Position numbers and translations under genes: made by a program. From Escherichia phage BEK1-1: a stretch of 44,592 bases of DNA. The notes beneath the pieces are model-generated. The model was not told the DNA's origin. It ran no database searches and was given only the letters and a program-made list of their open reading frames with translations. The stretch lies in sequence record MN158212.1. One strand, 5' to 3'. Positions 1,187 to 42,276 of this stretch are shown in pieces (positions within the stretch are counted from its first letter, which is position 1; the number at the start of each line of letters is the position of its first letter).

Positions 1187-1262
1187 ATTTAACCTCGTTC
1201 GTCGTTGATGGGGGTAATCATACTCCACCTTTTAATTTTTTATTTAGCAATTTGTGCTATTT
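1187..1262 (-). promoter_or_regulatory. box promoter (AAATAGCACAAATTGCTAAA, 20 nt, TATGAT, leader ACCCCCATC...) upstream of the annealase gene
   Basis: Direct reading of the reverse complement; same architecture as the other copies. Confidence 0.5.
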
Positions 1263-3104: not shown

Positions 3105-3150
3105 AAATAGCACTAATTGCTAAAGACAACTGACTATCTTTAGGTATATT
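3105..3150 (+). promoter_or_regulatory. box promoter (AAATAGCACTAATTGCTAAA, 20 nt, TATATT) upstream of the Rha-like gene
   Basis: Direct reading. Confidence 0.5.
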
Positions 3151-3222
3151 TAGGCGCATGGCGGCAATGGTGTTGTCTGATCTACCGATTTTCGGTAGAC
3201 ATAAATAACTGGAGAGAATGAA

Positions 3223-3870
3223 ATGAACATTGAAGTGTGCAAAGAACAATCAAAAACCATGATGAGCACAAAGGAAATCGCAGAGTTAACCGGCAAACGT
3301 CATGATCACGTCGTTCGCGACACAAAGGAAATGATCAATGAATTGTTACATTATAACGATGCCCCAGATTTGGGTCATGATGATTATCAACTACTTACAG
3401 ACAATCGAGGCTATACATCTGAGATTTTACTCAACAAGGAACTAACCGAAACGCTAATCACTGGCTACAGTGTCGTACTTCGCCACAAAGTAATCCGCAG
3501 GCTTCATGAACTTGAGGCTTTAGTTAAAAAACAAGCGGAAGTAATCAGCCAGATGGTAAGCATTGATGAGCTTAAAGAGGTTCGAATGATGCTTGGTGTG
3601 GCTAATGCGCAGAATGCACACCTGAGCCAGCGCATTGTTGCAGAGCAAAGAATAAATGAGATCTTACTCATGGATAAGAGTACCGATGAAAAACTAGACA
3701 TGCTGGCTTGTGAGGCTCGCCAGTGTTGGGTTAGTCGATCTGATGAGATGGAGGAAAGATTTAAGTATGAAGCCCAATGCTTCGCCCTTAAAGAAAAGAA
3801 TGATGCGCTGACCGGATTGATTGAGAATAATCTCGGCATTGACATCAAGCTGCTGCTGGAAAAGAAATAG
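3223..3870 (+). CDS. Rha-family phage regulatory protein (antirepressor-like)
   Basis: N-terminal ...STKEIAELTGKRHDHVVRDTKEM... resembles the Rha signature; C-terminal half coiled-coil-like; RBS GGAGAG. Confidence 0.5.
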   Translation: MNIEVCKEQSKTMMSTKEIAELTGKRHDHVVRDTKEMINELLHYNDAPDLGHDDYQLLTDNRGYTSEILLNKELTETLITGYSVVLRHKVIRRLHELEALVKKQAEVISQMVSIDELKEVRMMLGVANAQNAHLSQRIVAEQRINEILLMDKSTDEKLDMLACEARQCWVSRSDEMEERFKYEAQCFALKEKNDALTGLIENNLGIDIKLLLEKK

Positions 3871-3910
3871 CACTAATTGCTAAACACTGATCGCAAGGAT
3901 GCGATACTAT
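3865..3910 (+). promoter_or_regulatory. box promoter (AAATAGCACTAATTGCTAAA, 20 nt, TACTAT, leader ACTCCATCGAAACGAAA) upstream of cor
   Basis: Direct reading; the box overlaps the stop codon TAG of the preceding gene. Confidence 0.55.
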
Positions 3911-3945
3911 TACTCCATCGAAACGAAATTACTAAGGAATACAAA

Positions 3946-4176
3946 ATGAATAACTTCATCAAATCAGCAATCATCGCAGCAGCAGTAATCATGGCAGTTG
4001 GTTGTTCTTCTGGTCCTCGTCCTGATGGTTGGTGTGCAACGTCCTCAAACGGGGTGTGCGTAGCTAAGTGGAAAGGCGGTGTAGTTGTTCCTGCTGGTGA
4101 AATTGACATTCGATACGATGGAATTAAAGGCTCCAGTGGCTCCGTTCGTGATTATGGCTCTAAGGAGTGGAATTAA
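3946..4176 (+). CDS. cor: Cor-like superinfection-exclusion outer-membrane lipoprotein
   Basis: Internal ATG of track ORF 3877..4176; [22 protein letters not shown] = signal peptide plus lipobox; about 76 aa; position next to the tail-tip genes as in T1/phi80-type phages. Confidence 0.65.
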
Positions 4177-5111
4177 TGGCCCAAGGTATATACATAGATC
4201 TTAATGATGGAAGGAATCCAATGACAATTACCGCAGGGATGCGAGCCTTGAACTTTGCTGGAAACTTCAACGTTTCTAGTGGTGGATTTAGTAAGACGTT
4301 CTCAATCCAGGGAAATGAAGGGGCCTCAAGGTTCCTTATCCCTAACAATGGCGCTTATTCATTCGAGCTTGATAGGGGTGTTGAAATTTATTACATAAAT
4401 GGATTTTCATCAACGGCGTCAAGCGGGACTATATCAATTGGTTATGAGAATGGTTATTCTGACCGTATAACTCAATTCTCTGGTACTGTTGTTGAGGTGC
4501 TAAGGGCATCGACTGGACAAGGTATTTATGTTGCGAATAGTACTGATTTTACTTCGATAACCACCACTGACAGGTTGTTGGTGTGCAAGTTTGCCCAGAG
4601 GATATCTTTCACCAACACATACACACTTCCAATTTATGGGATACCATTTGGAAAGTGGAGCAACCCAGGCGTTTCAGTTGAATACAACGGTAGCAACCAA
4701 CTGATATGTACAAACATAAATACTGAAGATACTGGTGACACACCAGGAAGTGTCACTATGGATTTGATTATCTTCCAGATGGTCGCTCCAACCCCTGGTC
4801 CTGGACTTAACATATTTAATTCAAATGGTGCTTGTACGCTATCGACCGTAACTAGGCCATTGGTTGTTTCTGGATTCATAAATCTATCAGGTAGCAACCA
4901 GTACATTGGCGAATCTTACTTCCCAATACTCAGATGTGGATTTAACACAAGGGCAATACGAGCATATAAGGAGTTAAGAAACAAAGGAATTGTAATGAGC
5001 AATGGGTATGTTAGATCTGGCACGGGCTCAAGGATTGTCAGATACGAGATAGGAAATAGGCCTGACGTAACAATATCAACGCCACTTCCTTACCTTCCTG
5101 ATATGTATTAA
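4176..5111 (+). CDS. hypothetical Gly/Ser/Thr/Asn-rich protein (311 aa), possible fibre-like or exclusion protein
   Basis: ATG overlaps the cor stop (TAATG) with AAGGAG RBS; no signal peptide; ends at a bidirectional terminator. Confidence 0.4.
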   Translation: MAQGIYIDLNDGRNPMTITAGMRALNFAGNFNVSSGGFSKTFSIQGNEGASRFLIPNNGAYSFELDRGVEIYYINGFSSTASSGTISIGYENGYSDRITQFSGTVVEVLRASTGQGIYVANSTDFTSITTTDRLLVCKFAQRISFTNTYTLPIYGIPFGKWSNPGVSVEYNGSNQLICTNINTEDTGDTPGSVTMDLIIFQMVAPTPGPGLNIFNSNGACTLSTVTRPLVVSGFINLSGSNQYIGESYFPILRCGFNTRAIRAYKELRNKGIVMSNGYVRSGTGSRIVRYEIGNRPDVTISTPLPYLPDMY

Positions 5112-5115
5112 ATAT

Positions 5116-5141
5116 AAAGCCCCTTTCGGGGCTTTTGTTTT
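5116..5141. terminator. bidirectional intrinsic terminator between convergent genes
   Basis: GCCCC-TTTC-GGGGC with T-runs on both strands. Confidence 0.7.
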
Positions 5142-8100
5142 AGAAAGTACCTACTACAACTCTCCCTCCTCCAGGCAAGTTAACCGTGATTCCGTTTCCG
5201 TTAATCTGTACCGTATTGTTTGTTCCGTTAAAGGCGAATTCACCACTGTTGGCGTACAGTTTGCCGCGAATCTCAGCGTTACCAGACTTATCAATCCTCC
5301 ATCCTGTGCTTCCTGCCACGTAGTTGCTGGACTGAATAAAGTCACCAATCTTCGCGTTAGTAATTGAGCCATCTCCGATTACTGCGCTTTGGATGATTAC
5401 GTTTCCGTTCTCTACAACGAAGGGTAGTTGCCATTGACCGGAGCCAGAACCAATGCCATTACTGATTGCGAATCTGTTTGCGTCAAAAATAAACTGACTG
5501 CGAACATTATCACCAGTGCCAACTAGCTCCATGCTCATGCCGGATGAATAAGTCTGACCATTGTATTTCAGGCCAAGACTAATTCCGTACTGTACACCAG
5601 TTGACGTGGCATTAGAGAAAGCGTCTAACTTCTGGTTTAGAGCCGCCTCGTTTTCGCCAAGTCTTGCTGATAGAGCCGTGTCTGCTGTAGTCCTTGCTTC
5701 TGTCTCTGTGGCTAATGCAGTCTTAACTTCAGTAATCGATGCTACAACTTCATCATCTATCTGCGCTTTAAGGGCCGTTAGAGCCTCTACGCGTGCCTGA
5801 GTTTCATCGGCTATGAGATTCACCGCCTGAACATATTCAGCCTTACGTTTGCCGTTCTCCTTAGTCATGCGACGAACATCAGTGTCATTAGCCAATGCGT
5901 TCTCAAGAATTGACTCTGCCTGATTCTGAATATCCTGATTCTTTTGAATCGCATTCTGCTCCAGGTATTTGAATCCTTCAGAACCCTCAATATCAACCTT
6001 GATGTAATCATTGATAATGTTAGCGTCGTCAGTACTCATGCCTCTAGCAAAATAAGACCAATCAGAGGTATTTCCGATTCTGTCAATCAATCTTGCGCGA
6101 TACCAGATGACCTTACCTGGCTGAATTGGCGTATGCCAGTACTCATAGGCTGGATAAGGTAGTAAAGTCAGCGAGCTTGCGTTATCTGGATTGTAAGTAC
6201 CATCGCCATTATCAGGAACCTGCTGAAGCTCAGTGTAAGCAGTATCACCAGAGCCTTCAGGGAAACCCCACTTAACACGAATGCCGAATACCTCATCTGT
6301 TGATGCCGTGATAACAGTAGGCGCAGATGGGCGACCAATCTTGCCAGTTAGCGATACCGTTACAATGTCAGACCAGGAAGACACGTTTTCAGTATCTGAT
6401 ACGCTGCGAACCCTAACGTCATAGATTCCTGCGTAAATACCTTCGATATCAACCTCTGTGCTAGCTGTTCTGGGTACGTTAATCCAGTTGCCATTCTCTT
6501 TTCTCCACTGAACATTGTAGGTTTTAGCGTATGGAGCTTTATCCCATCCGATAACCATCGTCTCAACCGACAAGCCCTGAACAACCTTGCTATAACTTGA
6601 CACGGTCAAGTTTTCTGGTGGCGACAATCTGTCAGGCTCTACGATTGAAGTCGGGCGGTCAACAATGTTTACGCCATAATCAATCTCGTCATACTTGTTA
6701 GGGTCGTACTCCACTGCTGTAATCGTATACTGGAATGAATCCGATCCATCAGAATCTGCTTTTTGAATCCCGGTCACAACATATTGCTGAAGAGCAAGAT
6801 TGTCCTTATCAATTGCGAACACAGTATCAGGTTGAGCTACAAAGCTAAAAGCAGTATTCAGGTTGATGGTTCTACCGTCTTCCGAAATGCTGGCAATAGT
6901 TCTCGCTTCAGGGCTTCCGTCGGGTTTGTTCAGAAGAATTCTGTCACCTGGAGCTGCGTCAACTTTAAACTGGGTAAAAACCTGCAATCCCTGAACTGAT
7001 TCAATACGACCGGAAAGGTTTAACTGATAGTTACTAGACCATGCCGCGTCATTAACCGCAATGACCTCTCCAATCATCGGAATCATGCCCTCCAACCCAG
7101 TGGTGAAGCTGATAGTTTCGCTTCTCAGGTTGGTTTTCAGGAGCCATCTGCCGCGTCTGTTTGCTTCACTTCTCCGCGTACATCCAATTGCCGTAAGGTC
7201 GACTGGATTAAATCCGAATCTGCGAGTAGCTTCCAGTTCAAATACCGGCTCAACATCCTGCTGATAGTTGTTCTCCACATCATCAAACTGAACGTTCGCC
7301 GTAGTGTAAAGGCTCTTATCACTGGCAAAGGTGCGACTGAACAATCCGTTTACAACGTTATCATTCGTGAAGATGTAAGATGGGTTGCGAGGCTTATCAA
7401 CCACTATACCAATCTTTTCGCCATCATAGAAAGTCAGGCCACGGAAGATTGAGCAGATATCACGAATTAGCGTGTAGGCCTCAACCTTATTCTGTACAAC
7501 CATATCGCACAGGTAGCGCGGCTCCATTCCACCTTTTCCATCAGGAACCATCTGGTCGCAGAATTGCGCAGCCTCGTAAAGACCCCACTTATCAATCTCC
7601 ACGCCCAACTCTCGTTGATCAAGGCCATAGCGACGGTTTGTCACTAAGTCATAAAGAACCCAAGCTGGGTTATTTGACCATGCCATTTTGAACAGTCCAT
7701 TCCATGTTCCGCTGTAAGTTCTTGCTTCCGGGTCGTAGTTGGTTGGGACCTGAATCAGCTTCCAGCGCTTCTTGATAGAGATTGTCGGTATTCCGTTAGG
7801 GAAAAGGTCAGATCCAAACTCAACATAAACCAGAGCCGTAAGCGGATAGCGGAATTTAGCGTCAATTACTTCCTGATAGGTTGTAATCTGCATCCCGTTA
7901 ACCAATGTGCTACTTGTTGAATCCGCTGTAATCTTTCGGATGCGAACCAATGCGCTATCAAATTCAGCCGGAAGGTTCACTCGAATGCTGCGGTCGTAAC
8001 CTGTAGTTGTCTTTCCGTTGGCAACTCCTCGAGTATATTCCTGATAAGCGCCACCATTAACAGAAAGATCAATCGCATACTCGCAGGTTGTTCCGTTCAG

Positions 8101-8511
8101 GTCTCCATTGCTTTCTTGCTTAACCAGTCTAGGCCAATATAGCTTTACACGAATCGCTGATAGCTGAGTATTGTTAACCGCAATGATGTACGGGGTATCG
8201 TTTTTGATTTCCCTGGAGACCTGAACCTCTGAGTTTGCACCATCAAGGCCAGAGATATAGTCCTGATACTGCGTTCCAGGGCGAAACTCAGCCCGAACAC
8301 CTTCGTAGTTGTAGCTACCATCCTGGTTTTGCACCGGAACGTCAGCAAGGTATAAATCCTTCATTGAGAAGTTAGGGTCAACCTCACCATCAGCAACCGC
8401 CAAAAGAACCTTAACCTTGTTAAGTGAAATAAGGTTGTCTTCCTGCTCCACTGGTTGATGCGGCTTCTGACTACCACCCTTAGCACCATAAATCTTAATA
8501 TCTTCAGCCAT
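5140..8511 (-). CDS. tail tip / host-specificity protein (lambda gpJ-like)
   Basis: Track ORF 5140..8550, about 1120 aa from internal ATG (MAEDIKIYGAKGG...) with GAGG RBS; size and position after the I/K/L/M homologues. Confidence 0.8.
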   Translation of the reverse strand: MAEDIKIYGAKGGSQKPHQPVEQEDNLISLNKVKVLLAVADGEVDPNFSMKDLYLADVPVQNQDGSYNYEGVRAEFRPGTQYQDYISGLDGANSEVQVSREIKNDTPYIIAVNNTQLSAIRVKLYWPRLVKQESNGDLNGTTCEYAIDLSVNGGAYQEYTRGVANGKTTTGYDRSIRVNLPAEFDSALVRIRKITADSTSSTLVNGMQITTYQEVIDAKFRYPLTALVYVEFGSDLFPNGIPTISIKKRWKLIQVPTNYDPEARTYSGTWNGLFKMAWSNNPAWVLYDLVTNRRYGLDQRELGVEIDKWGLYEAAQFCDQMVPDGKGGMEPRYLCDMVVQNKVEAYTLIRDICSIFRGLTFYDGEKIGIVVDKPRNPSYIFTNDNVVNGLFSRTFASDKSLYTTANVQFDDVENNYQQDVEPVFELEATRRFGFNPVDLTAIGCTRRSEANRRGRWLLKTNLRSETISFTTGLEGMIPMIGEVIAVNDAAWSSNYQLNLSGRIESVQGLQVFTQFKVDAAPGDRILLNKPDGSPEARTIASISEDGRTINLNTAFSFVAQPDTVFAIDKDNLALQQYVVTGIQKADSDGSDSFQYTITAVEYDPNKYDEIDYGVNIVDRPTSIVEPDRLSPPENLTVSSYSKVVQGLSVETMVIGWDKAPYAKTYNVQWRKENGNWINVPRTASTEVDIEGIYAGIYDVRVRSVSDTENVSSWSDIVTVSLTGKIGRPSAPTVITASTDEVFGIRVKWGFPEGSGDTAYTELQQVPDNGDGTYNPDNASSLTLLPYPAYEYWHTPIQPGKVIWYRARLIDRIGNTSDWSYFARGMSTDDANIINDYIKVDIEGSEGFKYLEQNAIQKNQDIQNQAESILENALANDTDVRRMTKENGKRKAEYVQAVNLIADETQARVEALTALKAQIDDEVVASITEVKTALATETEARTTADTALSARLGENEAALNQKLDAFSNATSTGVQYGISLGLKYNGQTYSSGMSMELVGTGDNVRSQFIFDANRFAISNGIGSGSGQWQLPFVVENGNVIIQSAVIGDGSITNAKIGDFIQSSNYVAGSTGWRIDKSGNAEIRGKLYANSGEFAFNGTNNTVQINGNGITVNLPGGGRVVVGTF

Positions 8512-8557
8512 ATCACAAAGCCTCATGTTTGTTTTGATCATTTGTGCCATTCTACAC

Positions 8558-8584
8558 TAAATAAAAAACCCGCACTAGGCGGGT
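8558..8584 (-). terminator. intrinsic terminator-like hairpin between the I-like and J-like genes
   Basis: Minus strand ACCCGC-CTAGT-GCGGGT followed by TTTTTTATTT. Confidence 0.5.
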
Positions 8585-8591
8585 ATGATAT

Positions 8592-9164
8592 TTAAGCATT
8601 GTCTTCGGCGTAGCTGCCTGCCGAAAATACCGAACCGCCAACCGTTCGATACCCATAAGGAAGACAAACTGGATATCCAGCAGCAACCGTGTTTACGGCT
8701 GAGCCAAATGCGTAAGAGGCCCTGTTACTTGTTTGGTTGCTCTGGGTCTTTAATCCAGTCGCTTGCGGCGAGAGTAATTGAGCAATACCGCCAGCAGCCA
8801 GAGAAACACCAGCACCAACAAGATAAATCTGCCCGGTAAAGATGCCAATCGTGATAAGAGCGGCGCCTAAAATAGTCTGAAACAAGCCGCCAGACTTACG
8901 ACCTAGTGGGATTGGCAAGATGCGTATCTCCTGAACGGCACTAAAATCAGCAATCCTATGCTCGTTCACATTTTTACCATCTACAAATACAGCGTATCTT
9001 GTGTTCTGACCGACATGGCTATTCATGAACTCCTTGAAAGCAGGAATCTGTGAGCAAAGCGCTCGCATAGCCTCTGGCACACTACTTACTGCCATTTGGT
9101 GAATCTTGCCAAACTTACGGCCTAGAGATAGGCCTAACTTAATATCAATCAGTTTCTGGGTCAT
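8592..9164 (-). CDS. tail assembly protein (lambda gpI-like)
   Basis: 190 aa; Gly/Ala-rich hydrophobic C-terminal half; position between K-like and J-like genes. Confidence 0.6.
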   Translation of the reverse strand: MTQKLIDIKLGLSLGRKFGKIHQMAVSSVPEAMRALCSQIPAFKEFMNSHVGQNTRYAVFVDGKNVNEHRIADFSAVQEIRILPIPLGRKSGGLFQTILGAALITIGIFTGQIYLVGAGVSLAAGGIAQLLSPQATGLKTQSNQTSNRASYAFGSAVNTVAAGYPVCLPYGYRTVGGSVFSAGSYAEDNA

Positions 9165-9903
9165 AAATTACATCCTCTGGTAAATCTGTGTGGCGAACGA
9201 TTCGAACTGTGCGCTCTCGCCAGTAATCGGAGTAGATATCAACGGAACTCATTTTACCATAAAGGTGATGAATGAACCTGTTGTTGCCAATGTAGATTCC
9301 TGCGTGGTTTGTCACCTCGCTTTGCACCTGCATCATAATCATCGAGCCAATAGGAATATCTGAAGTTTTTACCAGCTCAAATCCTTCCTTAATCCAGTTG
9401 TCGTCATAGATATTTTCATTGTACCGTTTCTCCCACCACGGGTAATTAACGCGGTAGTCATTCAGTTTGACGCCGCATTTCTTGTGAAATTCCATGACCA
9501 AGCCCCAGCAATCAAAGCTACCAAGACTCCACGGGCGCCCAATCAGTGGCATAGATGATGGCTCAAGAGTCCGCACATCTCCCTCTGGGATGCTTACAAT
9601 AACATAAGGAATCTCGCATTCATTGCAGCTACAGATATCCGCTGGGCTGGGTCTTGTTGTGGCTCCATCACCCGTATGGGAGTGAACTACGTAAACAATT
9701 GACTCATTGTCAGCTAAGCTAAATGCGATACCAGAATACTCATTTGAATCAAGGATAAACTCATTTTCCGGGTCCTTACTGGCGTTTGTGATTTTGTGAT
9801 ACTTCTGCGCCCTACCTTTCTGGGTAACAACCCCACAGCACTCATGCGGGTAAACTTCTTTTGCGTGCTGGAATATCTCAAGTTTAACTTTTGGTGTTAA
9901 CAT
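9145..9903 (-). CDS. tail assembly protein (lambda gpK-like; MPN/JAMM plus NlpC/P60 domains)
   Basis: HECCG...HSHTGDGATTRPSPAD (JAMM-like E...HxH...S..D) and FDCWGL...H (NlpC/P60-like Cys/His). Confidence 0.75.
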   Translation of the reverse strand: MLTPKVKLEIFQHAKEVYPHECCGVVTQKGRAQKYHKITNASKDPENEFILDSNEYSGIAFSLADNESIVYVVHSHTGDGATTRPSPADICSCNECEIPYVIVSIPEGDVRTLEPSSMPLIGRPWSLGSFDCWGLVMEFHKKCGVKLNDYRVNYPWWEKRYNENIYDDNWIKEGFELVKTSDIPIGSMIMMQVQSEVTNHAGIYIGNNRFIHHLYGKMSSVDIYSDYWRERTVRIVRHTDLPEDVIYDPETD

Positions 9904-9916
9904 TAATAAATCCTCT

Positions 9917-10672
9917 TTAACTCTGATTTGCTTTAGCCTGAAGGCTTGCTGCAGCGCAGCCGCCGAAATCTAACTGATTATTCTCACCAAATCTAAGTTT
10001 GCAACTGTTAACAGTTCCTGCACAGAAGTCTAATGAAGGATCCGCCACTGGCTCATCATCCTTATTAAAGTATCTATTTCCAGCATAAGTACACCCATTA
10101 CCGCTACGATACCAACCCCTTGAGGCGAAATAGCAAACAGACTGAACAAGTCTAGCAGGGATGTAAATGCCATCCATATCCATCGGGCTACTTAGTTCAA
10201 ACGAAGCCGTCTTGTAATCAACCTGCTTTGGTCGCTCAATGAAGTAAACGAATCTGCGATAGTCCCCATCAGCAATGCTTCCATCTTCATTGATGTTGTC
10301 TCGCGTAGTAATCCAGATAGTAACCTTAGCCTTAACCAATCCGTTGTATGTGCGAATCAATGCACTGATACGCTGGTCTACGTTTGATACTGTTAGCGTC
10401 ACTTTGTTGGCTTTGCCGTCAGATGTCATATTGATGCCAGAGATACCAAAAGGTCTAGGACCGTACTCTTCACCGCGAAATGTAATTGTCTTTTCTGGTA
10501 GTGGCTCGCCATTCATTTGGGCCAGCATGATTTCCTCTGGCGTGTATGAAATGTTCTCATTGTGGAAGTTGTAAACGAGACTTCCGAAGGAGGTTCCGTC
10601 AACCTGGATTAGTGTCACAATCTCGCCAGGGAAAAGGCTTTGCAACTGATTTTCAAACTTTGGACTTAGCAT
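9917..10672 (-). CDS. minor tail protein (lambda gpL-like)
   Basis: Track ORF 9917..10684 (non-ATG first codon); start moved to ATG (MLSPKF...) after GGAG; C-terminal Cys cluster C..C......C...C as in gpL. Confidence 0.7.
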   Translation of the reverse strand: MLSPKFENQLQSLFPGEIVTLIQVDGTSFGSLVYNFHNENISYTPEEIMLAQMNGEPLPEKTITFRGEEYGPRPFGISGINMTSDGKANKVTLTVSNVDQRISALIRTYNGLVKAKVTIWITTRDNINEDGSIADGDYRRFVYFIERPKQVDYKTASFELSSPMDMDGIYIPARLVQSVCYFASRGWYRSGNGCTYAGNRYFNKDDEPVADPSLDFCAGTVNSCKLRFGENNQLDFGGCAAASLQAKANQS

Positions 10673-10683
10673 ATATTTCTCCA

Positions 10684-10708
10684 ATAAAAAAGCCCCTCAC
10701 AGGGGCTT
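10684..10708 (-). terminator. terminator-like hairpin between the M-like and L-like genes
   Basis: Minus strand AAGCCCC-TGTGA-GGGGCTT followed by TTTTTTATT. Confidence 0.5.
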
Positions 10709-10711
10709 AGT

Positions 10712-11062
10712 TTAACGCATTGAACTAAATACTTCTACGAATTGCATGCTTACAGTTTGAATATCCTTGTTGAGCGGAGTTACGCTAATGCTATCCTGCT
10801 GGATAACAAACATGGATGTGTCACCTTGCGGCGTTGTCCAGAAGAAAGGGGTAATGATGTGGTTGAAGCAGAAATCCATCACATCTCGCCAGTCCTTGTT
10901 GGTGTAGGTCATCTGGTAGCTTCTAGTATTACTACGATACCCCCCCGTTCCCCGTTGGGAATAGCCATTACCAAAGCTAACAATTCGCACGTTGTTCGTA
11001 TTGCTGAATGATGCTGATCCATTTTGTATCTGAGTGCACCAGTTAAATGTATCAATAGCCAT
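10712..11062 (-). CDS. minor tail protein (lambda gpM-like)
   Basis: Start at internal ATG (MAIDTFNW...) after TAAGGA; position between tape measure and L-like gene. Confidence 0.55.
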   Translation of the reverse strand: MAIDTFNWCTQIQNGSASFSNTNNVRIVSFGNGYSQRGTGGYRSNTRSYQMTYTNKDWRDVMDFCFNHIITPFFWTTPQGDTSMFVIQQDSISVTPLNKDIQTVSMQFVEVFSSMR

Positions 11063-11092
11063 AAAAATCCTTAGGGGCCGAAGCCCCACTAA

Positions 11093-14074: not shown

Positions 14075-14089
14075 CTAAGCCTCCATAAT

Positions 14090-14120
14090 AGAAAACCCGC
14101 CGAAGCGGGTTATTTTTTTC
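14090..14120. terminator. hairpin plus T-run between the chaperone genes and tape measure
   Basis: ACCCGC-CGAA-GCGGGT followed by TTATTTTTTTC on the plus strand; weaker T-run on the minus strand. Confidence 0.45.
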
Positions 14121-14439
14121 TCAGGTTGTCCATCATCTCTAGAGCCTTAGCTTCAAGGATGCGTAAATCGCTGAGCACCAATTCTTCTTCAGAAACATTA
14201 TACACTCTAAAGAGGAAATTTAGCACGTTGTAATCAAGTCCTGTAGCTCCGTTAGCTCCTACTCGCCACTGTGTAGCCATTGAACAATAAATGTCCCACG
14301 CCTTCATCATGTTTTCGTCGAAGTGTAAAACTTCAGGCTCTTCATCTTCGTAATCAGAGCGGCGCATCCCAATAGCTTCCAGTTCGGCATCAGTTGGATC
14401 TGACTGGTACTGTAGATACACCGCTCGTTTTAGTTTTTT
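14110..14439 (-). CDS. -1 frameshift extension giving a G-T-like fusion chaperone
   Basis: The -1 frame is open from the slippery site A_AAA_AAC (about 14433..14439) to the stop at 14110; it matches track ORF 14110..14421. Confidence 0.5.
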   Translation of the reverse strand, partial: KKLKRAVYLQYQSDPTDAELEAIGMRRSDYEDEEPEVLHFDENMMKAWDIYCSMATQWRVGANGATGLDYNVLNFLFRVYNVSEEELVLSDLRILEAKALEMMDNLRKK

Positions 14440-14744: not shown

Positions 14745-14783
14745 CTTAGTTAATCCTCTTATTGTTTGTGAGTATGTATTCTA

Positions 14784-15032: not shown

Positions 15033-15065
15033 TTCTTTAGTCTCTCATTTCGTTTCGATGAGTTA

Positions 15066-15111
15066 ACTATACAGCAAAACTGAATAAGTGCTTTATCAAA
15101 AAGTGCTATGC
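15066..15111 (-). promoter_or_regulatory. box promoter (variant box, 20 nt, TATAGT, leader AACTCATCGAAACGAAA) upstream of the 82-aa gene
   Basis: Direct reading of the reverse complement. Confidence 0.5.
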
Positions 15112-15131
15112 AATAAAAAACCCTCCGAAGA
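15105..15131 (-). terminator. intrinsic terminator after the major tail protein gene
   Basis: Minus strand AAACCCTC-TTCGG-AGGGTTT followed by TTTTTATTGC. Confidence 0.7.
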
Positions 15132-15142
15132 GGGTTTGTGTT

Positions 15143-25886: not shown

Positions 25887-25919
25887 TTGCTCTATCTCTC
25901 TCATTGTGCTGATGTGGTG

Positions 25920-25965
25920 ATTATATGCCATCCATGGCGACTGCGTTTAGCAATTCGTGCTATTT
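25920..25965 (-). promoter_or_regulatory. box promoter (AAATAGCACGAATTGCTAAA, 20 nt, TATAAT)
   Basis: Direct reading of the reverse complement. Confidence 0.55.
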
Positions 25966-26678: not shown

Positions 26679-26699
26679 TGTTGTAACCTCATATCGTTT

Positions 26700-26755
26700 C
26701 GATGGGGTAACTATAACAAATTACCCCAATACAGTTTTAGCAATTCGTGCTATTT
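26700..26755 (-). promoter_or_regulatory. box promoter (AAATAGCACGAATTGCTAAA, 20 nt, TATAGT, leader ACCCCATCGAAACGA)
   Basis: Direct reading of the reverse complement. Confidence 0.55.
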
Positions 26756-27352: not shown

Positions 27353-27380
27353 TTTCTATCCTCTCGTTTGGTGTGAACTA

Positions 27381-27427
27381 ACTATAACAAAACCCGCCGT
27401 AGCTGGTTATGCAAAAGGTGCTATTTA
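27381..27427 (-). promoter_or_regulatory. box promoter, half-box variant (AAATAGCACCTTTTGCATAA, about 20 nt, TATAGT)
   Basis: Direct reading of the reverse complement. Confidence 0.4.
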
Positions 27428-27681: not shown

Positions 27682-27873
27682 ATATCAATCCTCGTCACTG
27701 TGCCGCCATGCGTCTTAAGCATGAGGTTTGCGTATTTTTCGTCTACATAGTGCAGGAACATATCAATTCCCCTGCTGCTGAATTTATGTTCGTATATCGT
27801 CACTTAACTTACACTCGTGTGGTTGATGTGGGGATTATACCAGTCAGGATGAATCCCCTTTTAACAATTATTG

Positions 27874-28092
27874 CTATTTGATAACCCCGTACTTAACCGC
27901 GTTGGCGAGGGTAATATACTCCTTAGCCGTCAGCGTTGAGTGAAAGGTGAAGATTCCGGCCTGGATACCCTTAACCAGCGATTCAGTCTTGATCCCTGAA
28001 ATGTTGACGATCCCGAGACCGCCAACAGTGCGAAGAACCACTCCGGAAACCACACAAAACTCCACACCATTACTATTCGTATACACCTGCAT
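27874..28092 (-). CDS. hypothetical protein (about 72 aa)
   Basis: Start at internal ATG (MQVYTNSNG...) after AAGGAG. Confidence 0.4.
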   Translation of the reverse strand: MQVYTNSNGVEFCVVSGVVLRTVGGLGIVNISGIKTESLVKGIQAGIFTFHSTLTAKEYITLANAVKYGVIK

Positions 28093-28105: not shown

Positions 28106-28363
28106 TCATTGCCTCTCCGCCTCTTCCGCCGCAAGGATTAATGCCGCCGCCAGCTTGCGTGCTTGCTCAGGACTGTATTGCATAATCGTCTGACAATCTC
28201 CGCATTCATCCGGGTCGAAATCCAGACATACAACGGGACCTCGATCTCTTTTTGTAATGCTTATCTCAGCTTGGTCTAAGTAAAGATCTTCAATACGAAC
28301 AGCTTCCATATTCATTTCCTCTTTGTTTTCGATTGGGTAATCATAGCTAACTACCCGATCCAT
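28106..28363 (-). CDS. hypothetical acidic protein (85 aa)
   Basis: ORF with box promoter immediately upstream. Confidence 0.4.
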   Translation of the reverse strand: MDRVVSYDYPIENKEEMNMEAVRIEDLYLDQAEISITKRDRGPVVCLDFDPDECGDCQTIMQYSPEQARKLAAALILAAEEAERQ

Positions 28364-28385
28364 TGTTTAGCAATTCGTGCTATTC
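28340..28385 (-). promoter_or_regulatory. box promoter (AATAGCACGAATTGCTAAA, 20 nt, TATGAT, leader ACCCAATCGAAAACA)
   Basis: Direct reading; the box overlaps the TAG stop of the upstream gene. Confidence 0.55.
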
Positions 28386-30069: not shown

Positions 30070-30085
30070 CATAAATCTGACGAAT

Positions 30086-30129
30086 GGCACTTTTTGCTAA
30101 AGACACTGGAGGTCATGGAGGATATAGTT
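30086..30129 (+). promoter_or_regulatory. box promoter, half-box variant (CACTTTTTGCTAAA, about 20 nt, TATAGT, leader AACTCATCAAAACGAGG)
   Basis: Direct reading. Confidence 0.45.
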
Positions 30130-30154
30130 AACTCATCAAAACGAGGAGATAGAA

Positions 30155-30584: not shown

Positions 30585-30745
30585 TGCTGCTGCCATCTGA
30601 GATAAATTATTTCGATCTTGAAGTCATAAGCGCATACAGCTGGAAGGGTTGGCCTTGCGGGGACTGGTTTCGCGAAGACTTACTTGAGAGTCATGAAATT
30701 ATGCTCAAGGCCATAGAAAAAGCACGAAATAGCACTAATTGCTAA
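30584..30745 (+). CDS. hypothetical protein (53 aa)
   Basis: ATG overlaps the upstream stop (TGATG); 3' end AAT AGC ACT AAT TGC TAA coincides with the box. Confidence 0.35.
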   Translation: MLLPSEINYFDLEVISAYSWKGWPCGDWFREDLLESHEIMLKAIEKARNSTNC

Positions 30746-30772
30746 ACACTGATCGCAAGGATGCGGTATTAT
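30727..30772 (+). promoter_or_regulatory. box promoter (AAATAGCACTAATTGCTAAA, 20 nt, TATTAT)
   Basis: Box and spacer nearly identical to the cor promoter (CACTGATCGCAAGGATGCG). Confidence 0.5.
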
Positions 30773-30798
30773 CTTTACATCAAAACGGGAGATAAGAA

Positions 30799-30963: not shown

Positions 30964-31313
30964 CCAATACGATTACCAAAAACTGGATCAGCAACGAAAA
31001 TGTACTCTATAAAGCTCGCGTTAAAGATGGAGTAGAGCAAATCAAGAAAGATGGAAAATGGATTAACCTTGAAGAGCGCGGCAAGTACATCAAGACAAAG
31101 ACAATTTACTGCACAAATGTTAATCATCGCTCATCCATTCGTAAATACTTCACTGAAGGGAAGAGGTATCAAGTAGATCTCCATGCTGGACTTGGTCAGT
31201 TCGCTGGATACATTTACGATAAAGAGGGCAGCGCATGGCAGGTATATCGTGACGAAGATGTTGGCTTTGTTACAGTTTGCGGCGACTACCGCTTTGAGGC
31301 TCAATACCGATAA
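30960..31313 (+). CDS. hypothetical protein (117 aa)
   Basis: ATGA overlap with the upstream gene. Confidence 0.4.
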   Translation: MTNTITKNWISNENVLYKARVKDGVEQIKKDGKWINLEERGKYIKTKTIYCTNVNHRSSIRKYFTEGKRYQVDLHAGLGQFAGYIYDKEGSAWQVYRDEDVGFVTVCGDYRFEAQYR

Positions 31314-31387
31314 TAAGCACAAATTGACAATGAATTATAAGCGGCCGTTGATATAATGGCCGCTCAGAAACAATACGGAGACAAGTA

Positions 31388-34698: not shown

Positions 34699-34739
34699 TT
34701 TGTGTTTCCTCGTTTAGTTTATCTCGTTTCGATGTGGTG

Positions 34740-34786
34740 ATTATGCCGCATTTCTACGGCATTAGTTAGGCAAAAAGTGCTATTTA
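34740..34786 (-). promoter_or_regulatory. box promoter, half-box variant (AAATAGCAC..., 20 nt, CATAAT, leader ACCACATCGAAACGAG)
   Basis: Direct reading of the reverse complement. Confidence 0.45.
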
Positions 34787-35265
34787 CCGTGCCTCTCTGT
34801 GAATTCTGGGTTACCCTCGTAAACTGACTTCGCATATGATACTGCTTCTTCTTTTGTGTAGAAGGTTTTGTAAACCCTGTTTTTATCAATCTGAATTTGA
34901 ACAAGCCACGGCTTTCCATCCCTTTTTATCTTATTTATGAAGTAAACACCTGTAACTCCTGATGTGTTATCCTTTCTCATAGCTGCATTCTTGCAGTTAA
35001 CCCATCTATCTACGCATCTCAAATTCTCTATCCGATTATCGTGCTTAACTCCATTAATGTGATCGATTTCCATACCTTTAGGGACTTCTCCGTTATGCAT
35101 TTCCCATATTACTCGATGGGCAAAAGTCATCTTTGAAAACAGTTTAGTCCTAACGTACCCCCTCAAATCAATATACCCAGCCTTAACTCCGTTATAAGAT
35201 GATACCCTGTGGTTCTTTCTGTACAAATCACCATTTGAATATTCGTAATAATCGTGCCAATTCAT
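34780..35265 (-). CDS. HNH homing endonuclease with AP2-like DNA-binding domain
   Basis: ...AHRVIWEMH...EIDHINGVKHDNRIENLR... (HNH) and ...SGVTGVYF...KPWLVQI...KTFYTKEEA... (AP2-like). Confidence 0.7.
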   Translation of the reverse strand: MNWHDYYEYSNGDLYRKNHRVSSYNGVKAGYIDLRGYVRTKLFSKMTFAHRVIWEMHNGEVPKGMEIDHINGVKHDNRIENLRCVDRWVNCKNAAMRKDNTSGVTGVYFINKIKRDGKPWLVQIQIDKNRVYKTFYTKEEAVSYAKSVYEGNPEFTERHGK

Positions 35266-35293
35266 TTCAATCTCCTCTCGTTTCTATAAAACA

Positions 35294-35339
35294 ATAATAG
35301 CCGCTTTCGCGGCTACTGTTTTAACAAAAGGTGCTATTA
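35294..35339 (-). promoter_or_regulatory. box promoter, variant, with hairpin TAGCCGC-GAAA-GCGGCTA inside the 20-nt spacer
   Basis: Direct reading; the hairpin may also terminate transcripts from the upstream phosphoesterase gene. Confidence 0.4.
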
Positions 35340-36491
35340 GTATTTGGATCCAGGGTTTGCGTCACGAAGCATTTCAACAGGAATGCTCACTCGACTAACT
35401 TCTCCATACTTCTTGTGATACGTAATAACGTTTGCACTACGCCCAGAGAAGTACCCGCCCTTGGATGAGTACTCATCTTTTGCAGCAAGTGTCTGGTGTT
35501 GCTCAATAATCATCAAGCTAGTTTCCTTAACCGCTCTGTGGTGCAGGTGGCCTAGGTGCGTGTATGCGAACTTGGATTTACCAAACATCTCACGATACTT
35601 AGCAATTATTGCTGATTCAACTCTGGAGAAGTTAGCGCAATGCCCGTGATGCATGGCAATCATAACGTCTCCAAATTCATATGCGTAGTAAGGGGAAACT
35701 TCGCGATTCACTTCAACTCGCTCATTTTCAATAAATACTTCATGAAACATCTCGCGCAACCATAATGAAGATACCGGGTTGTGATTTCCCTCACAAATCA
35801 ATAGCTTAACCTTTTTATGTTTAACCAGGCACATGCTTATGGCTGCCTTGATTAATTTAATCTGAGTCCGAATCATTCGGAATAATCTAGTATCAGCAGA
35901 AAGAATGTGACCACTCATTGGGGTTACAGCTTTCATTGAGTCGTAGTGAGCCTCATCCCCTAAAAAGTTAATTATGCATTCATCGCTGTTCGGGCTCATT
36001 GCCACGGCGCTGCTGAACCAGTCCAATGCTAATTTCTCAGCAATCTTGGTGTCATAATTGTCACCACCTTCCTCTGCGCAAGCAAGCATTCCAATGTGAT
36101 GGTCTGTGATGGTGTAGAGGTTGAGAATGTCAGAATTAGTTATCTCACCTGAGTGGTTAACAGCATCGTACTTAGGTAGCTCTTTCTTAAGCTCCTCAAC
36201 AACAATTTGCATCAGCTCTTGCTGTCGCTCCTTGTCAACTTCTGATTTAACCCACTGACCTTTAATCTCACCATCGGCACCAATTAAGCTAGACACACCT
36301 TTGACAGCGTAACCTTGAGGAATTAGGTTGCTTACATCACGGCCGTGCCCCTCACCCCGTTTTGCCAGCTTACTACGACGCAATTCAACGTTGCGAATGT
36401 TCATTCCGTACTTCTCTGCGATTGCCTTGTTGGTCATTCCATTCGCCAGCTCTTCGCGTAGTTGTTCGTTGGTGATTTTTGCAGTTGCCAT
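35337..36491 (-). CDS. calcineurin-like metallophosphoesterase with N-terminal helix-turn-helix domain
   Basis: N-terminal ...MTNKAIAEKYGMNIRNVELRR... (HTH-like); phosphoesterase-like motifs ...ITDHHIG..., ...GDEAH..., ...EGNHN..., ...MHHGH..., ...GHLHH... Confidence 0.55.
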   Translation of the reverse strand: MATAKITNEQLREELANGMTNKAIAEKYGMNIRNVELRRSKLAKRGEGHGRDVSNLIPQGYAVKGVSSLIGADGEIKGQWVKSEVDKERQQELMQIVVEELKKELPKYDAVNHSGEITNSDILNLYTITDHHIGMLACAEEGGDNYDTKIAEKLALDWFSSAVAMSPNSDECIINFLGDEAHYDSMKAVTPMSGHILSADTRLFRMIRTQIKLIKAAISMCLVKHKKVKLLICEGNHNPVSSLWLREMFHEVFIENERVEVNREVSPYYAYEFGDVMIAMHHGHCANFSRVESAIIAKYREMFGKSKFAYTHLGHLHHRAVKETSLMIIEQHQTLAAKDEYSSKGGYFSGRSANVITYHKKYGEVSRVSIPVEMLRDANPGSKY

Positions 36492-36574: not shown

Positions 36575-36832
36575 TCATTCAACTTCTTTCAACCAGTAGT
36601 CAATCAAATCAGCACTAATTGCTAATTTCTGGTCAAGGTCAGTCATACAAAGGTCTCCGCATGCTGGGGAGTAGTAAATCTGAACCCACTTCCCGTCTTT
36701 AGTTTTTGCGTTCACATCCACATAATCTGGAGGAAACCAGTCAGAGATGGGTATCGCTCTAAACTTTGCACCACTTTGACCATATACTAAATCGTAATGA
36801 TCTGGCTGAAAATCTAAACCCAACATACTCAA
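36575..36832 (-). CDS. hypothetical protein (85 aa)
   Basis: ORF; ATGA-type overlap with the upstream gene. Confidence 0.35.
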   Translation of the reverse strand: MSMLGLDFQPDHYDLVYGQSGAKFRAIPISDWFPPDYVDVNAKTKDGKWVQIYYSPACGDLCMTDLDQKLAISADLIDYWLKEVE

Positions 36833-37420: not shown

Positions 37421-37662
37421 TATTCTGATACCTCATCAAATTTTTCGCCAAATGCGTTTTTAACAGTTTCCAGGTCATCTTTGTAAGTCGGGCTAACTTC
37501 GAAAGCATAACCCTCACCATCGTCAAGAACATAGCCATCAGGGGTGATTACCAATTCATACTCATAACCAGTTTTGCGTGATTCGTAGAATTTTCCAGTG
37601 TAGATAGTAGCCATTTTGTTTCTCTCTCTGTGTTTCGTTTCGATGGAGTAACTATACCCCAA
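37420..37662 (-). CDS. hypothetical protein (80 aa)
   Basis: ORF with box promoter upstream. Confidence 0.4.
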   Translation of the reverse strand: MGYSYSIETKHRERNKMATIYTGKFYESRKTGYEYELVITPDGYVLDDGEGYAFEVSPTYKDDLETVKNAFGEKFDEVSE

Positions 37663-37696
37663 TCTTTAAAATCGTCTTTAGCAATTCGTGCTATTT
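37651..37696 (-). promoter_or_regulatory. box promoter (AAATAGCACGAATTGCTAAA, 20 nt, TATAGT, leader ACTCCATCGAAACGAAA)
   Basis: Direct reading of the reverse complement. Confidence 0.55.
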
Positions 37697-40101: not shown

Positions 40102-40149
40102 ATCTGAATTCCTATAAAAATTGTCTTGTAGCGTTTAATTGAGTACAAT

Positions 40150-40191
40150 ATTACCATCAAATCATGATGACTTTTAACAAAAAATGCTATT
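40150..40191 (-). promoter_or_regulatory. box promoter, half-box variant, upstream of the helicase gene
   Basis: CAATAGCATTTTTTGTTAAA, 20 nt, AATATT on the reverse complement. Confidence 0.35.
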
Positions 40192-40202
40192 GAGGTAATA
40201 AG

Positions 40203-40688
40203 ATGAATGCAGTCGACAAGCGAACCATTAACGGTAATAACGGAACCATCCGCACTGAAGACAAAAAGCAACGGAAACGACCTTCAGGTTACTACGTTTT
40301 GAAAGATGAGGTAAGGGCGGGTTTACGTGCGCGGCTGGAAATTGTTCTTGATTTCTTCGGCACAAAGGCAAATATGGCAAAGCAATTAAAGGTAACACCA
40401 CAGGCTGTAGAGGAATGGTTTAAGCGCGGCATGATTTCTGCGCGCGGGGCTCAACTCTCACACAACTACTACAAGCGAACCGGGGAAGGCTTTCGCGCCA
40501 CATTCTGCCGACCAGATCTGCAATTCGACGGCAACGGCAAGCCTCTTACTCTACGTTGCAAAAAGCGTCACATGCTGCGTGTTGTTACTGAGGCTGAATT
40601 AGCCACCAAGCCAGAGTGTCGATCATGGCGCAAGATTAAGGAAGAGAATCGCAAAAAGCGAGAAGCAGAGAAAAATAGCACGAATTGA
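40203..40688 (+). CDS. putative HTH DNA-binding regulator (161 aa)
   Basis: ...FGTKANMAKQLKVTPQAVEEWFKRGMIS... resembles a Cro/CI-type helix-turn-helix; basic N- and C-termini. Confidence 0.45.
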   Translation: MNAVDKRTINGNNGTIRTEDKKQRKRPSGYYVLKDEVRAGLRARLEIVLDFFGTKANMAKQLKVTPQAVEEWFKRGMISARGAQLSHNYYKRTGEGFRATFCRPDLQFDGNGKPLTLRCKKRHMLRVVTEAELATKPECRSWRKIKEENRKKREAEKNSTN

Positions 40689-40725
40689 TAAACAATGGCG
40701 CTATGCATTGTGTATAGTGCCTTTA
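40673..40725 (+). promoter_or_regulatory. box promoter (AAATAGCACGAATTGATAAA, 20 nt, TATAGT) upstream of the second HNH gene
   Basis: The box overlaps the last codons (NSTN-stop) of the HTH gene. Confidence 0.5.
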
Positions 40726-40738
40726 TTGTTTATGGAGG

Positions 40739-42211: not shown

Positions 42212-42276
42212 TGCCTGAAAGATGATACAATCCAATTTAGCAATTCTTGCTATTTTACAAATGGAGACTTTACACA

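Follow-up and report, generated by a model that had tools for sequence, protein, structure and literature searches.

The DNA analysed here is a 44,592-nucleotide stretch of Escherichia phage BEK1-1 (MN158212.1), hereafter the window. It is essentially the whole, circularly permuted genome of a T1-like siphovirus (Rtp-like Drexlerviridae), and the element in question is a 20-bp box, AAATAGCACKAATTGCTAAA, that recurs upstream of its genes. The first 25 kb of the window are 91% identical over 98% to Escherichia phage vB_EcoS-12210I and its siblings, relatives classified as Drexlerviridae, Braunvirinae, Veterinaerplatzvirus, and the gene order was transferred from the vB_EcoS-12210I record by tblastn. 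The recombination genes are found at 0.07-2.8 kb. On the minus strand, a long block begins with small early open reading frames (ORFs; 29.4 to 24.6 kb) and continues with the genes for packaging, head and tail (24.5 to 5.1 kb), a replication/lysis block occupies 30-42 kb, and the tail-fibre gene starts at 42277.

We counted 18 copies of the box in the window, 17 of which are followed by a -10-like hexamer (Table 1). An earlier note, made from the letters of the window, had described at least 15 copies of a promoter-like module with, in nearly every case, a spacer of exactly 20 nt (21 in two variants) between box and -10, and this description is upheld: of the 17 copies with a -10, fifteen have a 20-nt spacer, one (30082) has 21 nt and one (40173) has 19 or 20 nt. 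The ten positions listed there for full boxes are all correct, as are the six for half-box variants (15092, 27407, 30082, 34766, 35320 and 40173), and two copies absent from that list were found at 27860-27879 (two mismatches, with a good TATAAT) and at 31312-31331, upstream of a DUF3987 helicase gene. The copy at 42236 does not belong to the promoter class in which it had been placed; it has no -10 in its own direction and is instead a box that lies inverted at the tail-fibre promoter's start site. The box with up to three mismatches gave 12 matches where 0.01 were expected. The composite pattern ATAGCA-N4-TTG-N-TAA-N21-TANNNT with up to two mismatches gave 14 matches against 0.17 expected, and none of 100 shuffled sequences reached 14, so that box, spacer and -10 occur together far beyond the level of shuffled sequence. 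All 17 copies with a -10 are oriented toward the next gene, and the distance from box start to ATG is about 65-120 nt, typically 75-85. The downstream genes named in the earlier note were confirmed: the Erf annealase, Rha-like and Cor-like lipoprotein genes, both helicase genes, two HNH genes, small ORFs and a single ORF of the tail block. For 12 of the 18 copies, the ORF before the box has its stop codon in or on it, and seven of these use the box's own TAG; the packing of the cassettes is as tight as it can be. A box-like near-palindrome (AATCAGCACTAATTGCTAAT) at 36607-36626, within the small ORF 36575..36832, has no -10 on either side and is also present in sequence L009 at 3114.

The spacing is also kept outside the window. 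Among 60 perfect boxes in five genomes, 46 have TAnnnT at exactly 20 nt and no other spacing is represented more than six times. In 1.8 Mb of Drexlerviridae DNA, a census whose loci were retrieved via the regulator gene described below and de-duplicated by exact module sequence alone, the 330 perfect boxes include 189 with TAnnnT at 20 nt and 42 with it at 19 nt. We aligned modules on the box, 71 from the five genomes and 359 from the 1.8 Mb, and numbered them with the -10 hexamer set at -12..-7; the -10 columns of the resulting logo are partly conditioned on A-11 and T-7, and the spacing counts are unconditioned. The box spans -52..-33, with the dyad TAGCA-N5-TGCTA centred at -42. The TATAGT-like -10, with A-11 and T-7 in register, stands between a G at -14 (77% of the 359 modules) and C-1/A+1 (74% and 78%). 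Downstream of +1 comes a leader, (c)ATCGAAACGA, then a ribosome-binding site (RBS), and the start codon follows 20-39 nt past the predicted +1. The leader sequence CATCGAAACGA has six matches in the window against 0.71 expected, every one of them within a module. Positions -35..-30 read AAAA(A/C)N, so the modules have no -35, and the only TTG, in the box, lies 22 nt from the -10. The module alignments and spacing counts thus bear out the class-II-like geometry of the earlier note, in which the box has its centre at -42 and no -35 stands at a workable distance.

Compared with known promoter types, the modules lack the TTGACA-like -35 at 16-18 bp from the -10 that a canonical sigma70 promoter has; at the level of sequence they do have its TAnnnT with a purine start about 7 nt downstream. 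An extended -10 (TGn) is not general either, with T-15 in 22% of modules only, as against 77% for G-14, and a full TGn is found in a minority of copies, for example 26755, 27426 and 31312. Nor does the box resemble an UP element, which is A/T-only over -59..-38 and read through the minor groove: its most conserved positions are G or C (G-47, C-46, C-44 and G-38, about 2 bits each), as would suit base-specific reading by a protein. Canonical sigma70-type sites occur genome-wide at chance (39 against 39.7, 23 against 30.0 and 15 against 13.4 expected). The in-register -10, G-14, C-1/A+1, the orientation and this dearth of ordinary promoters together make promoter function very likely, and transcripts very probably start at the modules' predicted +1. 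Since a -10 without a -35 or a full TGn normally needs help, the box must supply it, and we lean toward a requirement at box promoters for a factor beyond the bare polymerase. The invariant phasing points to a stereospecific contact with polymerase, not to simple occlusion.

The same box, 20-nt spacing and leader are present in T1 (Tunavirinae), Rtp, TLS, Klebsiella phage KP36 (Webervirus), Cronobacter phage ESP2949-1 and Vibrio phage Vc1, and the same cassette occurs in 80 IMG/VR contigs. The box is invariant among phages of Escherichia, Klebsiella, Cronobacter and Vibrio while the proteins of the phages that bear it are often only 40-60% identical, indicating that it is under strong selection. 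We found no lineage with a different box among 113 protein matches to the regulator and 80 IMG/VR loci, all of which are Drexlerviridae-like, at least 44-50% identical, and have the same box. No conserved box-like site was found in 5,426 E. coli genomes, a weak test in which near-perfect matches alone are detectable; this result and the unchanged box of the Vibrio phage make a host regulon unlikely. In T1 (15069-15088 and 18833-18852) and in ESP2949-1 (8674), antisense boxes also occur within the late region, where they precede the major head gene and the gene of the tape-measure chaperone and have a poor -10 or none.

Part of this element has been described. A 2024 re-annotation of TLS reported 18 intergenic copies of a 21-nt direct repeat, aaATAGCACnnnTTGnTAAAA, which follow the direction of transcription about 76 nt before start codons, and only three intergenic sigma70-like promoters (PMC11447400). 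Its authors mention unpublished sightings of the repeat in T1, Rtp and Rogue1, offer a stoperator, an enhancer site or an UP element, and pose the function as an open question (PMC11447400). Judged by sequence, the box of the window is a member of this repeat family: the window holds 12 matches, the logo of the 359 modules agrees with the published consensus, and 17 of the 18 copies face the downstream gene, with 42236 inverted. Consensus, orientation, the distance of about 76 nt to the start codon and the GAA/TTT/AAA sub-types are the same. New relative to that paper are the fixed 20-nt distance to the -10, G-14, the +1 context, the leader and the embedded hairpins, as well as the inverted copies at the regulator and tail-fibre promoters and a candidate binder.

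A GC-rich hairpin lies between -31 and -1 of the modules. Over -34..+8 the mean minimum free energy is -11.4 kcal/mol against -4.8 kcal/mol for shuffles, with a median z of -3.55, and a downstream control stretch has a z of +0.5; z is below -1.64 in 72% of modules as compared with 4% in the control region. The hairpins fall into two classes. Class A has arms at about -31..-23 and -18..-10, often with a GAAA loop, and the T-rich stretch that follows the arms is the -10 itself plus TGTTTT (for example 35317..35296). By their sequence these hairpins are intrinsic terminators, and their equivalents are annotated as terminators in the T1 record. Class B has arms at about -24..-16 and -9..-1, with the first half of the -10 in the loop, the 3' arm ending at -1, and no U-tract after the hairpin. 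Its arms differ between copies but remain complementary (GGGGTA/TACCCC, AAGGCC/GGCCTT, GGGGAT/ATCCCC), which indicates that the pairing is under selection; it may act either in RNA or in DNA. We know of no described precedent among sigma70 promoters for a hairpin that crosses the -10 and whose 3' arm ends at -1. At the early promoters of phage N4, a hairpin centred near -12 is read by the virion RNA polymerase. Class B resembles these in having an inverted repeat, centred on the -10 region, whose arms vary and covary, and differs in that here there is no phage RNA polymerase gene, the -10 is of sigma70 character, and a hairpin in DNA is hypothetical.

We read box, -10, hairpin and leader together as the standard early/middle promoter cassette of T1-like phages, serving most of their genes of these two stages; to this reading, including the factor-dependent mechanism set out further below, we give a probability of roughly 0.55. 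In such a cassette the hairpin between the box and +1 would act on the transcript arriving from upstream, and the class A hairpin would be an intrinsic terminator whose U-tract is the -10. The proximity of box and hairpin also allows for a signal in RNA, in which the box of read-through transcripts folds as a 5-bp hairpin, UAGCA-N5-UGCUA, of the boxB/nut kind, and recruits a factor that controls whether transcripts terminate or are processed at the next hairpin; the N-terminus of the regulator, rich in arginine, could be this factor. A hairpin does lie within a few nt of every box, many of these are real terminators according to the T1 record annotations, the alternation of C and T at -37 keeps a G-C or G-U pair in 93% of copies, and the invariant N-terminal arm of the regulator is basic. 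We nevertheless regard an RNA signal as highly improbable: none of the five pairs has a compensatory change, G-47 stays the same when A or G stands opposite it, a C at -49 has no corresponding G at -35, no Rfam family matches, and the in-register -10, G-14 and C-1/A+1 would be left unexplained.

Cassettes that join a promoter to a stem-loop are known from T4-like phages. Like the PeSL elements (PMC2839356, PMC4122927), the modules are repeated intergenic units of promoter plus stem-loop or terminator and are concentrated among small variable ORFs; the association of PeSL elements with indel or replacement junctions is one that the modules may share. PeSL promoters are near-canonical sigma70 promoters (TTGACA-N17-TATAAT), whereas here there is no -35 and the hairpin is inside the promoter, overlapping the -10. 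The related PmSL cassettes combine a middle promoter with a stem-loop (PMC4122927). This likeness raises an explanation compatible with any biochemical function of the box, that the repeats persist as portable homology for the exchange of promoter-gene-terminator units. Of the ends of segments without homology between the window and a relative, 9 of 26 (Rtp) and 3 of 10 (vB_EcoS-12210I) are no more than 60 nt from a module as compared with 6.6% of random positions, a comparison made without a control for gene boundaries; the HNH gene 34780..35265 sits between two modules, and modules are dense in regions of variable small ORFs. Modules are, on the other hand, located at gene boundaries, where mosaic junctions are expected anyway, and exchange does not explain conservation at the level of single bases across subfamilies that share about 50% protein identity. 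As the reason for the repeats we consider it very unlikely.

Among the non-structural genes common to all box-bearing genomes, only two encode proteins with DNA-binding signatures. The earlier note had named two candidate regulators, ORF 40203..40688 and the Rha-like ORF 3223..3870. The latter is rejected as the binder; it is not a core gene, being absent from T1, Rtp, KP36 and ESP2949-1, all of which bear the box. The former still leads, although its hypervariable recognition helix, discussed below, counts against it. It is confined to this phage family (824 phage records; 113 clusters). Its AlphaFold2 model (pLDDT 89.8) gives Foldseek TM scores of 0.72-0.73 to Xfaso1 Cro and 0.64-0.69 to N15 Cro, its core matches the all-alpha Cro proteins, profile comparison to Cro proteins gives E = 0.003-0.01, and the Pfam P22_Cro score is 26.2 bits, under the cut-off of 30.2. 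The model thus supports a Cro-like helix-turn-helix (HTH) fold. We put this protein forward tentatively as the box-binding factor, which on the present evidence is possible rather than probable. The gp16-like protein, annotated as a DNA repair exonuclease, is a weak alternative on the basis of its predicted domains, in which a three-helix HTH is joined to a beta-hairpin domain and to a metallophosphoesterase domain of generic type. The HTH of its KP36 homologue scores 26.6 bits against a cut-off of 25.7, with weak similarity to SsrB/EsrB; the best structural matches of the protein are the Rv0805 cyclic-nucleotide phosphodiesterase, Mre11 and GpdQ. The HTH is well conserved within the family and not in a broader alignment. 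The gp16-like gene itself lies behind box promoters, which weakens its candidacy, and a 50%-identical homologue is found in an unrelated phage contig with a Mu-like portal, with no box in its 21 kb.

The regulator gene is among the few to have a canonical sigma70-type promoter of its own, whose -10 overlaps the -10 of the SNF2 helicase box module face to face. The corresponding promoter is TTGAAT-17-TATAAT in T1 and TTGTCA-16-TATAAT in KP36, where it is annotated, and in TLS it is P57, which is among the three canonical promoters of that phage. Between the regulator promoter and the RBS stands the helicase box in inverted orientation, 8-11 nt from the regulator ATG in 71 of 80 loci. This locus has the layout of an early, auto-regulated switch. 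An inverted box is also found at the tail-fibre gene, where the order of primase terminator, extended -10, inverted box, RBS and ATG is kept in 22 distinct sequences; the extended -10 is TGcTATAAT or TGaTACAAT, and the inverted box starts 4-10 nt later. Since the box at the regulator leader and at the tail-fibre gene stands downstream of an activator-independent promoter, a bound protein would repress there, and the arrangement suggests that a single factor acts as activator at -42 and as repressor at +1.

These inverted boxes, the Cro fold of the candidate and the stoperator analogy raised by the TLS authors (PMC11447400) would also suit a box that is mainly a repressor site for the Cro-like protein, with the -10 and G-14 alone driving the promoters, early units being shut off and late ones delayed. 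Repression needs no exact 20-bp distance, and -42 is a poor spot from which to block a promoter without a -35. Moreover, T-15 is found in 22% of copies, so that few have a full extended -10 able to work alone. The stoperators of mycobacteriophage L5 are likewise short asymmetric repeats, present in many copies per genome and oriented with transcription, but they lie within transcribed regions at variable positions with no fixed promoter distance and are bound by a prophage repressor, whereas the box is locked to its -10 at a fixed 20 nt; the Drexlerviridae are annotated without integrase or repressor. We judge a primarily repressive box quite unlikely.

Under the promoter-cassette reading, the sigma70 RNA polymerase of the host would read the TATAGT-like -10 aided by G-14 and start at the A of cATCG, 7 nt downstream of the -10, and the box at -52..-33 would take over the role of the missing -35. 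A sequence-specific protein on the box, bound each time on the same face of the DNA, would recruit or position polymerase by class II activation, as lambda cI does at PRM. The regulator would be made first, from its canonical promoter, would then switch on about 17 box promoters, and would shut its own promoter and that of the tail-fibre gene through the inverted box downstream of the -10. By analogy, the mechanism may be like that of class II promoters or of MotA-type middle promoters, combined with PeSL/PmSL cassettes. Class II promoters have a site over the -35 position, a weak or absent -35, a good -10 and strict phasing, with the site centred at about -41.5 to -43.5, and the modules agree with them in each respect. 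Known centres are -42 for lambda cI at OR2/PRM, -42.5 for LuxR at the 20-bp lux box, -41.5 for CRP and FNR, and -43.5 for Mu Mor/C. Those sites are symmetric, bound by dimers and free in orientation, whereas the box is asymmetric, one-way and unlike all of them in sequence. The middle promoters of T4 (MotA/AsiA) likewise have a phage-specific upstream box in place of the -35, keep the sigma70 -10 (TAnnnT) and serve prereplicative genes. The MotA box (TGCTT) has its centre at -30 and lies 11-13 bp from the -10, and the box here is centred at -42, 20 bp away; the TGCT within it lies at -39..-36, 23 bp from the -10, and does not fit a MotA box. No MotA or AsiA homologue turned up in Pfam and PHROG scans of the candidate proteins, which did not cover all ORFs exhaustively. 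Distinctive of the system are the position and one-way asymmetry of the box, the hairpin across the -10, the two inverted copies, and a regulator conserved outside its recognition helix.

A wider scheme, which we hold to be doubtful, would have one Cro-fold protein with an invariant basic N-terminal arm run the temporal programme of a virulent phage family. It would read the asymmetric 20-bp box in a non-canonical way, activate about 17 promoters from -42, repress its own and the tail-fibre promoter from about +1, and flip from early to late through titration on replicating boxes, with the covarying hairpin lying across the -10. The titration switch, in which synthesis is limited and box copies multiply with replication, is conceivable as pure conjecture. 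The covarying hairpin may be a DNA cruciform, a stabiliser of transcript ends or a means of promoter occlusion.

Several points weigh against the promoter-cassette reading and the role it gives to the regulator. In the searchable literature, which does not include the genome papers of T1 (2004) and Rtp (2006), we found no study of transcript starts or promoters in any of the Drexlerviridae, and likewise no mapped 5' ends, expression measurements or binding assays from these phages. Relative to the -10, the box never changes its orientation, and its conservation is asymmetric (ATAGCAC as against TTGnTAAA); a one-way asymmetric box is unusual for a symmetric dimer site. The latent period of T1 is very short, and if nearly all early genes depended on a phage-made activator, having to wait for it would be awkward. 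The co-occurrence of box and regulator in the 80 IMG/VR loci is no independent test, because these loci were collected via the regulator gene. The exposed positions of the recognition helix (helix 3) of the regulator are the most variable in the protein, with entropies of 2.2-3.6 bits over 41 homologues, and among these homologues its residues are not conserved in step with the operator. In Cro proteins, changes in the recognition helix track changes in the operator (PMC6649833), which makes an invariant box hard to square with canonical reading by a hypervariable helix. The invariant residues of the regulator are instead those of a basic N-terminal arm (DKRTINGNNGTRRGKDKKxRKR) and of the C-terminal sub-domain; reading of the box would then fall to the arm and other conserved surfaces, unless the regulator is not its reader at all. 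Finally, the right half of the box (TTGCTA; TTGACA at 31312) resembles a -35 displaced by 5 bp, which hints at a direct contact with polymerase.

This last point, together with the unconserved recognition helix, leads to an explanation from polymerase alone, in which the unmodified host holoenzyme reads TTGnTA as a displaced -35 through sigma region 4 and the A-tracts through the C-terminal domain of the alpha subunit. In that case the modules would be strong, constitutive promoters of the immediate-early kind, with the Cro-fold protein either unrelated or just a later repressor. The TTG at -40..-38 is conserved like a -35 hexamer, one copy reads TTGACA-22-TATAAT, the box is invariant across hosts whose polymerase is invariant too, and most early genes carry the box, as would suit immediate expression. 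A 22-bp spacer, however, is outside the established sigma70 working range of 15-19 bp, and the strongest conservation (ATAGCAC at -50..-44) is at G/C positions and matches neither the UP-element consensus nor a sigma contact. A scan with the sigma70 consensus also misses the modules apart from chance overlaps. We regard reading by polymerase alone as unlikely.

Other known sites were compared with the box and rejected. For a sigma54 promoter (TGGCAC-N5-TTGC, with a start 12 nt downstream), the gap between G(G) and GC is 8 nt, not 10, the G of position 2 is A in nearly all copies, and the conserved -10 lies 20 nt further on. The CCCCAT after some -10 hexamers, which recalls sigma32, is just part of some hairpin arms and lies 30 nt from the TTG. 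By inspection against their consensus sequences there is no fit to sigma28, sigma24, CRP, FNR, IHF, Fis, OxyR, the DnaA box or the lambda CII repeats; for CRP and FNR this accords with the earlier note. The SlyA half-site TTAGC is identical, but its spacing here is 7, not 2. The box is not a self-contained promoter either, as no conserved hexamer lies 17 nt from any hexamer within it.

Table 1. Box modules of the window, with the candidate binders and the two promoters that carry an inverted box. Start sites, terminators and protein classes are predicted.
Feature	Coordinates	Strand	Box	Spacer, -10, +1	Hairpin, leader, other	Downstream gene or remark
Module 1	1200..1262	-	1262..1243	20-nt spacer; TATGAT 1222..1217		Erf annealase gene (-; Erf Pfam match)
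Module 2	3105..3167	+	3105..3124	TATATT 3145..3150	without the conserved leader	Rha-like gene (3223; +)
Module 3 (copy flagged in the earlier note)	3865..3926	+	3865..3884; TAG of box is stop of ORF 3223..3870	TACTAT 3905..3910; predicted +1 A 3917	class A hairpin ATCGCA/TGCGAT; leader CATCGAAACGA 3916..3926	Cor-like lipoprotein gene (3946), DUF6453 gene
Module 4	15050..15111	-	variant GCATAGCACTTTTTGATAAA 15111..15092	TATAGT 15071..15066	leader 15060..15050	82-aa ORF in tail block; directly past terminator 15137..15118
Module 5	25903..25965	-	25965..25946	TATAAT 25925..25920
Module 6	26694..26755	-	26755..26736	TATAGT 26715..26710	hairpin TGGGGTAATT/AGTTACCCCA around -10; leader 26704..26694
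Module 7	27364..27426	-	variant AAATAGCACCTTTTGCATAA 27426..27407	TATAGT 27386..27381
Module 8 (not listed before)	27817..27879	-	AAATAGCAATAATTGTTAAA 27879..27860	TATAAT 27839..27834	hairpin GGGGATT/AATCCCC enclosing -10
Module 9	28323..28385	-	28385..28366	TATGAT 28345..28340	hairpin GGGTAGTTA/TGATTACCC
Module 10	30082..30144	+	variant GAATGGCACTTTTTGCTAAA 30082..30101	21-nt spacer; TATAGT 30123..30128	leader 30134..30144
Module 11	30727..30789	+	30727..30746	TATTAT 30767..30772	class A hairpin
Module 12 (not listed before)	31312..31374	+	AATAAGCACAAATTGACAAT 31312..31331	TATAAT 31352..31357; TTGACA 22 nt from TATAAT	hairpin AGCGGCC/GGCCGCT enclosing -10	DUF3987 helicase gene; counterparts at Rtp 43852 and L009 8919
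Module 13	34724..34785	-	variant 34785..34766	CATAAT 34745..34740	hairpin ATGCCGTA/TGCGGCAT; leader 34734..34724	DUF7244 ORF, then lysis genes
Module 14	35277..35339	-	variant TAATAGCACCTTTTGTTAAA 35339..35320; TAA of box is stop of gp16-like gene	TATTAT 35299..35294	class A terminator hairpin AGTAGCCGC-GAAA-GCGGCTATT, then TGTTTT	HNH gene
Module 15	37635..37696	-	37696..37677	TATAGT 37656..37651	leader 37645..37635	small ORFs and gp16-like gene
Module 16	40130..40192	-	variant CAATAGCATTTTTTGTTAAA 40192..40173; also inverted, 11 nt upstream of regulator ATG	AATATT/TAATAT ~40153..40147		SNF2 helicase gene
Module 17	40673..40735	+	AAATAGCACGAATTGATAAA 40673..40692; TGA of box is stop of regulator gene	TATAGT 40713..40718	11-bp hairpin	HNH gene and primase gene
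Regulator promoter, canonical sigma70-type	40121..40149	+		TTGTCT-17-TACAAT
Cro-fold 'transcriptional regulator'	40203..40688	+				homologue of T1 gp23 / TLS gene 57; core gene
gp16-like protein (weaker second candidate)	35337..36491	-				N-terminal sigma70-region-4/LuxR-type HTH and metallophosphoesterase
Tail-fibre promoter	42223..42255	+	inverted, 42236..42255 (~-2..+18)	extended -10 TGaTACAAT 42223..42231	RBS GGAG	ATG 42277

T1 belongs to the seven classic T phages, and the Drexlerviridae rank with the most frequent coliphages and Klebsiella phages in therapy collections. With the repeat as the upstream half of a strictly phased cassette without a -35, the timing of gene expression in these phages becomes a directly testable question, and engineers gain a family-wide, probably phage-specific promoter part. 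Annotators can use the cassette as a reliable guide to transcription units. Several of the annotated start codons precede the predicted +1 and are probably incorrect. The longest-ORF starts at 25931, 28363, 37662 and 1228 fall upstream of the predicted +1 of their own module, 28363 being the start used in a related RefSeq record, and the downstream ATGs with good RBSs (about 25886, 28313, 37614 and 1189) are likely the true starts.

The minus-strand late block of packaging, head and tail genes (5100-24650) contains at least nine strong sense-strand intrinsic terminators (24618, 22449, 17793, 17453, 15137, 14111, 10708, 8584 and 5135). It has a single box module, and sigma70-like promoters are not in excess there. 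Transcription past these terminators could involve antitermination or promoters without a box in the T-rich tails. Perfectly palindromic GC-rich hairpins with T-runs on both strands, which we take as bidirectional terminators, are found at 5116-5135, 14094-14111, 33317-33334 and 15118-15137, placed at convergent or sense gene junctions.

The HNH endonuclease genes at 34780-35265 and 40739-41269 are absent from the closest relative, vB_EcoS-12210I. The first is bounded by the modules at 35339 and 34785, as expected if modules are junctions of insertion or recombination. A tRNA-Arg(TCT) gene (24861-24938, minus strand) lies between the early small-ORF block and the small terminase gene; it was the sole match in the Rfam scan, which returned no family for the box or module. 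All tested genera of Drexlerviridae are unusually sensitive to the DNA intercalator daunorubicin (PMC13250531), and a relation of this sensitivity to hairpin-bearing promoters would be pure speculation. An AT-rich element of about 70 bp is present in two near-identical copies, at 2925-2996 and 29729-29803, which occupy the two large divergent non-coding regions of the genome. Its layout is TATACACAGTA..ATATATA(ATA)n..AAAAGGTTGATATATATAGATATT, with a TAA/ATA microsatellite that differs in length between the copies, and it may serve as an origin, as a pac-related site or as an immediate-early control region.

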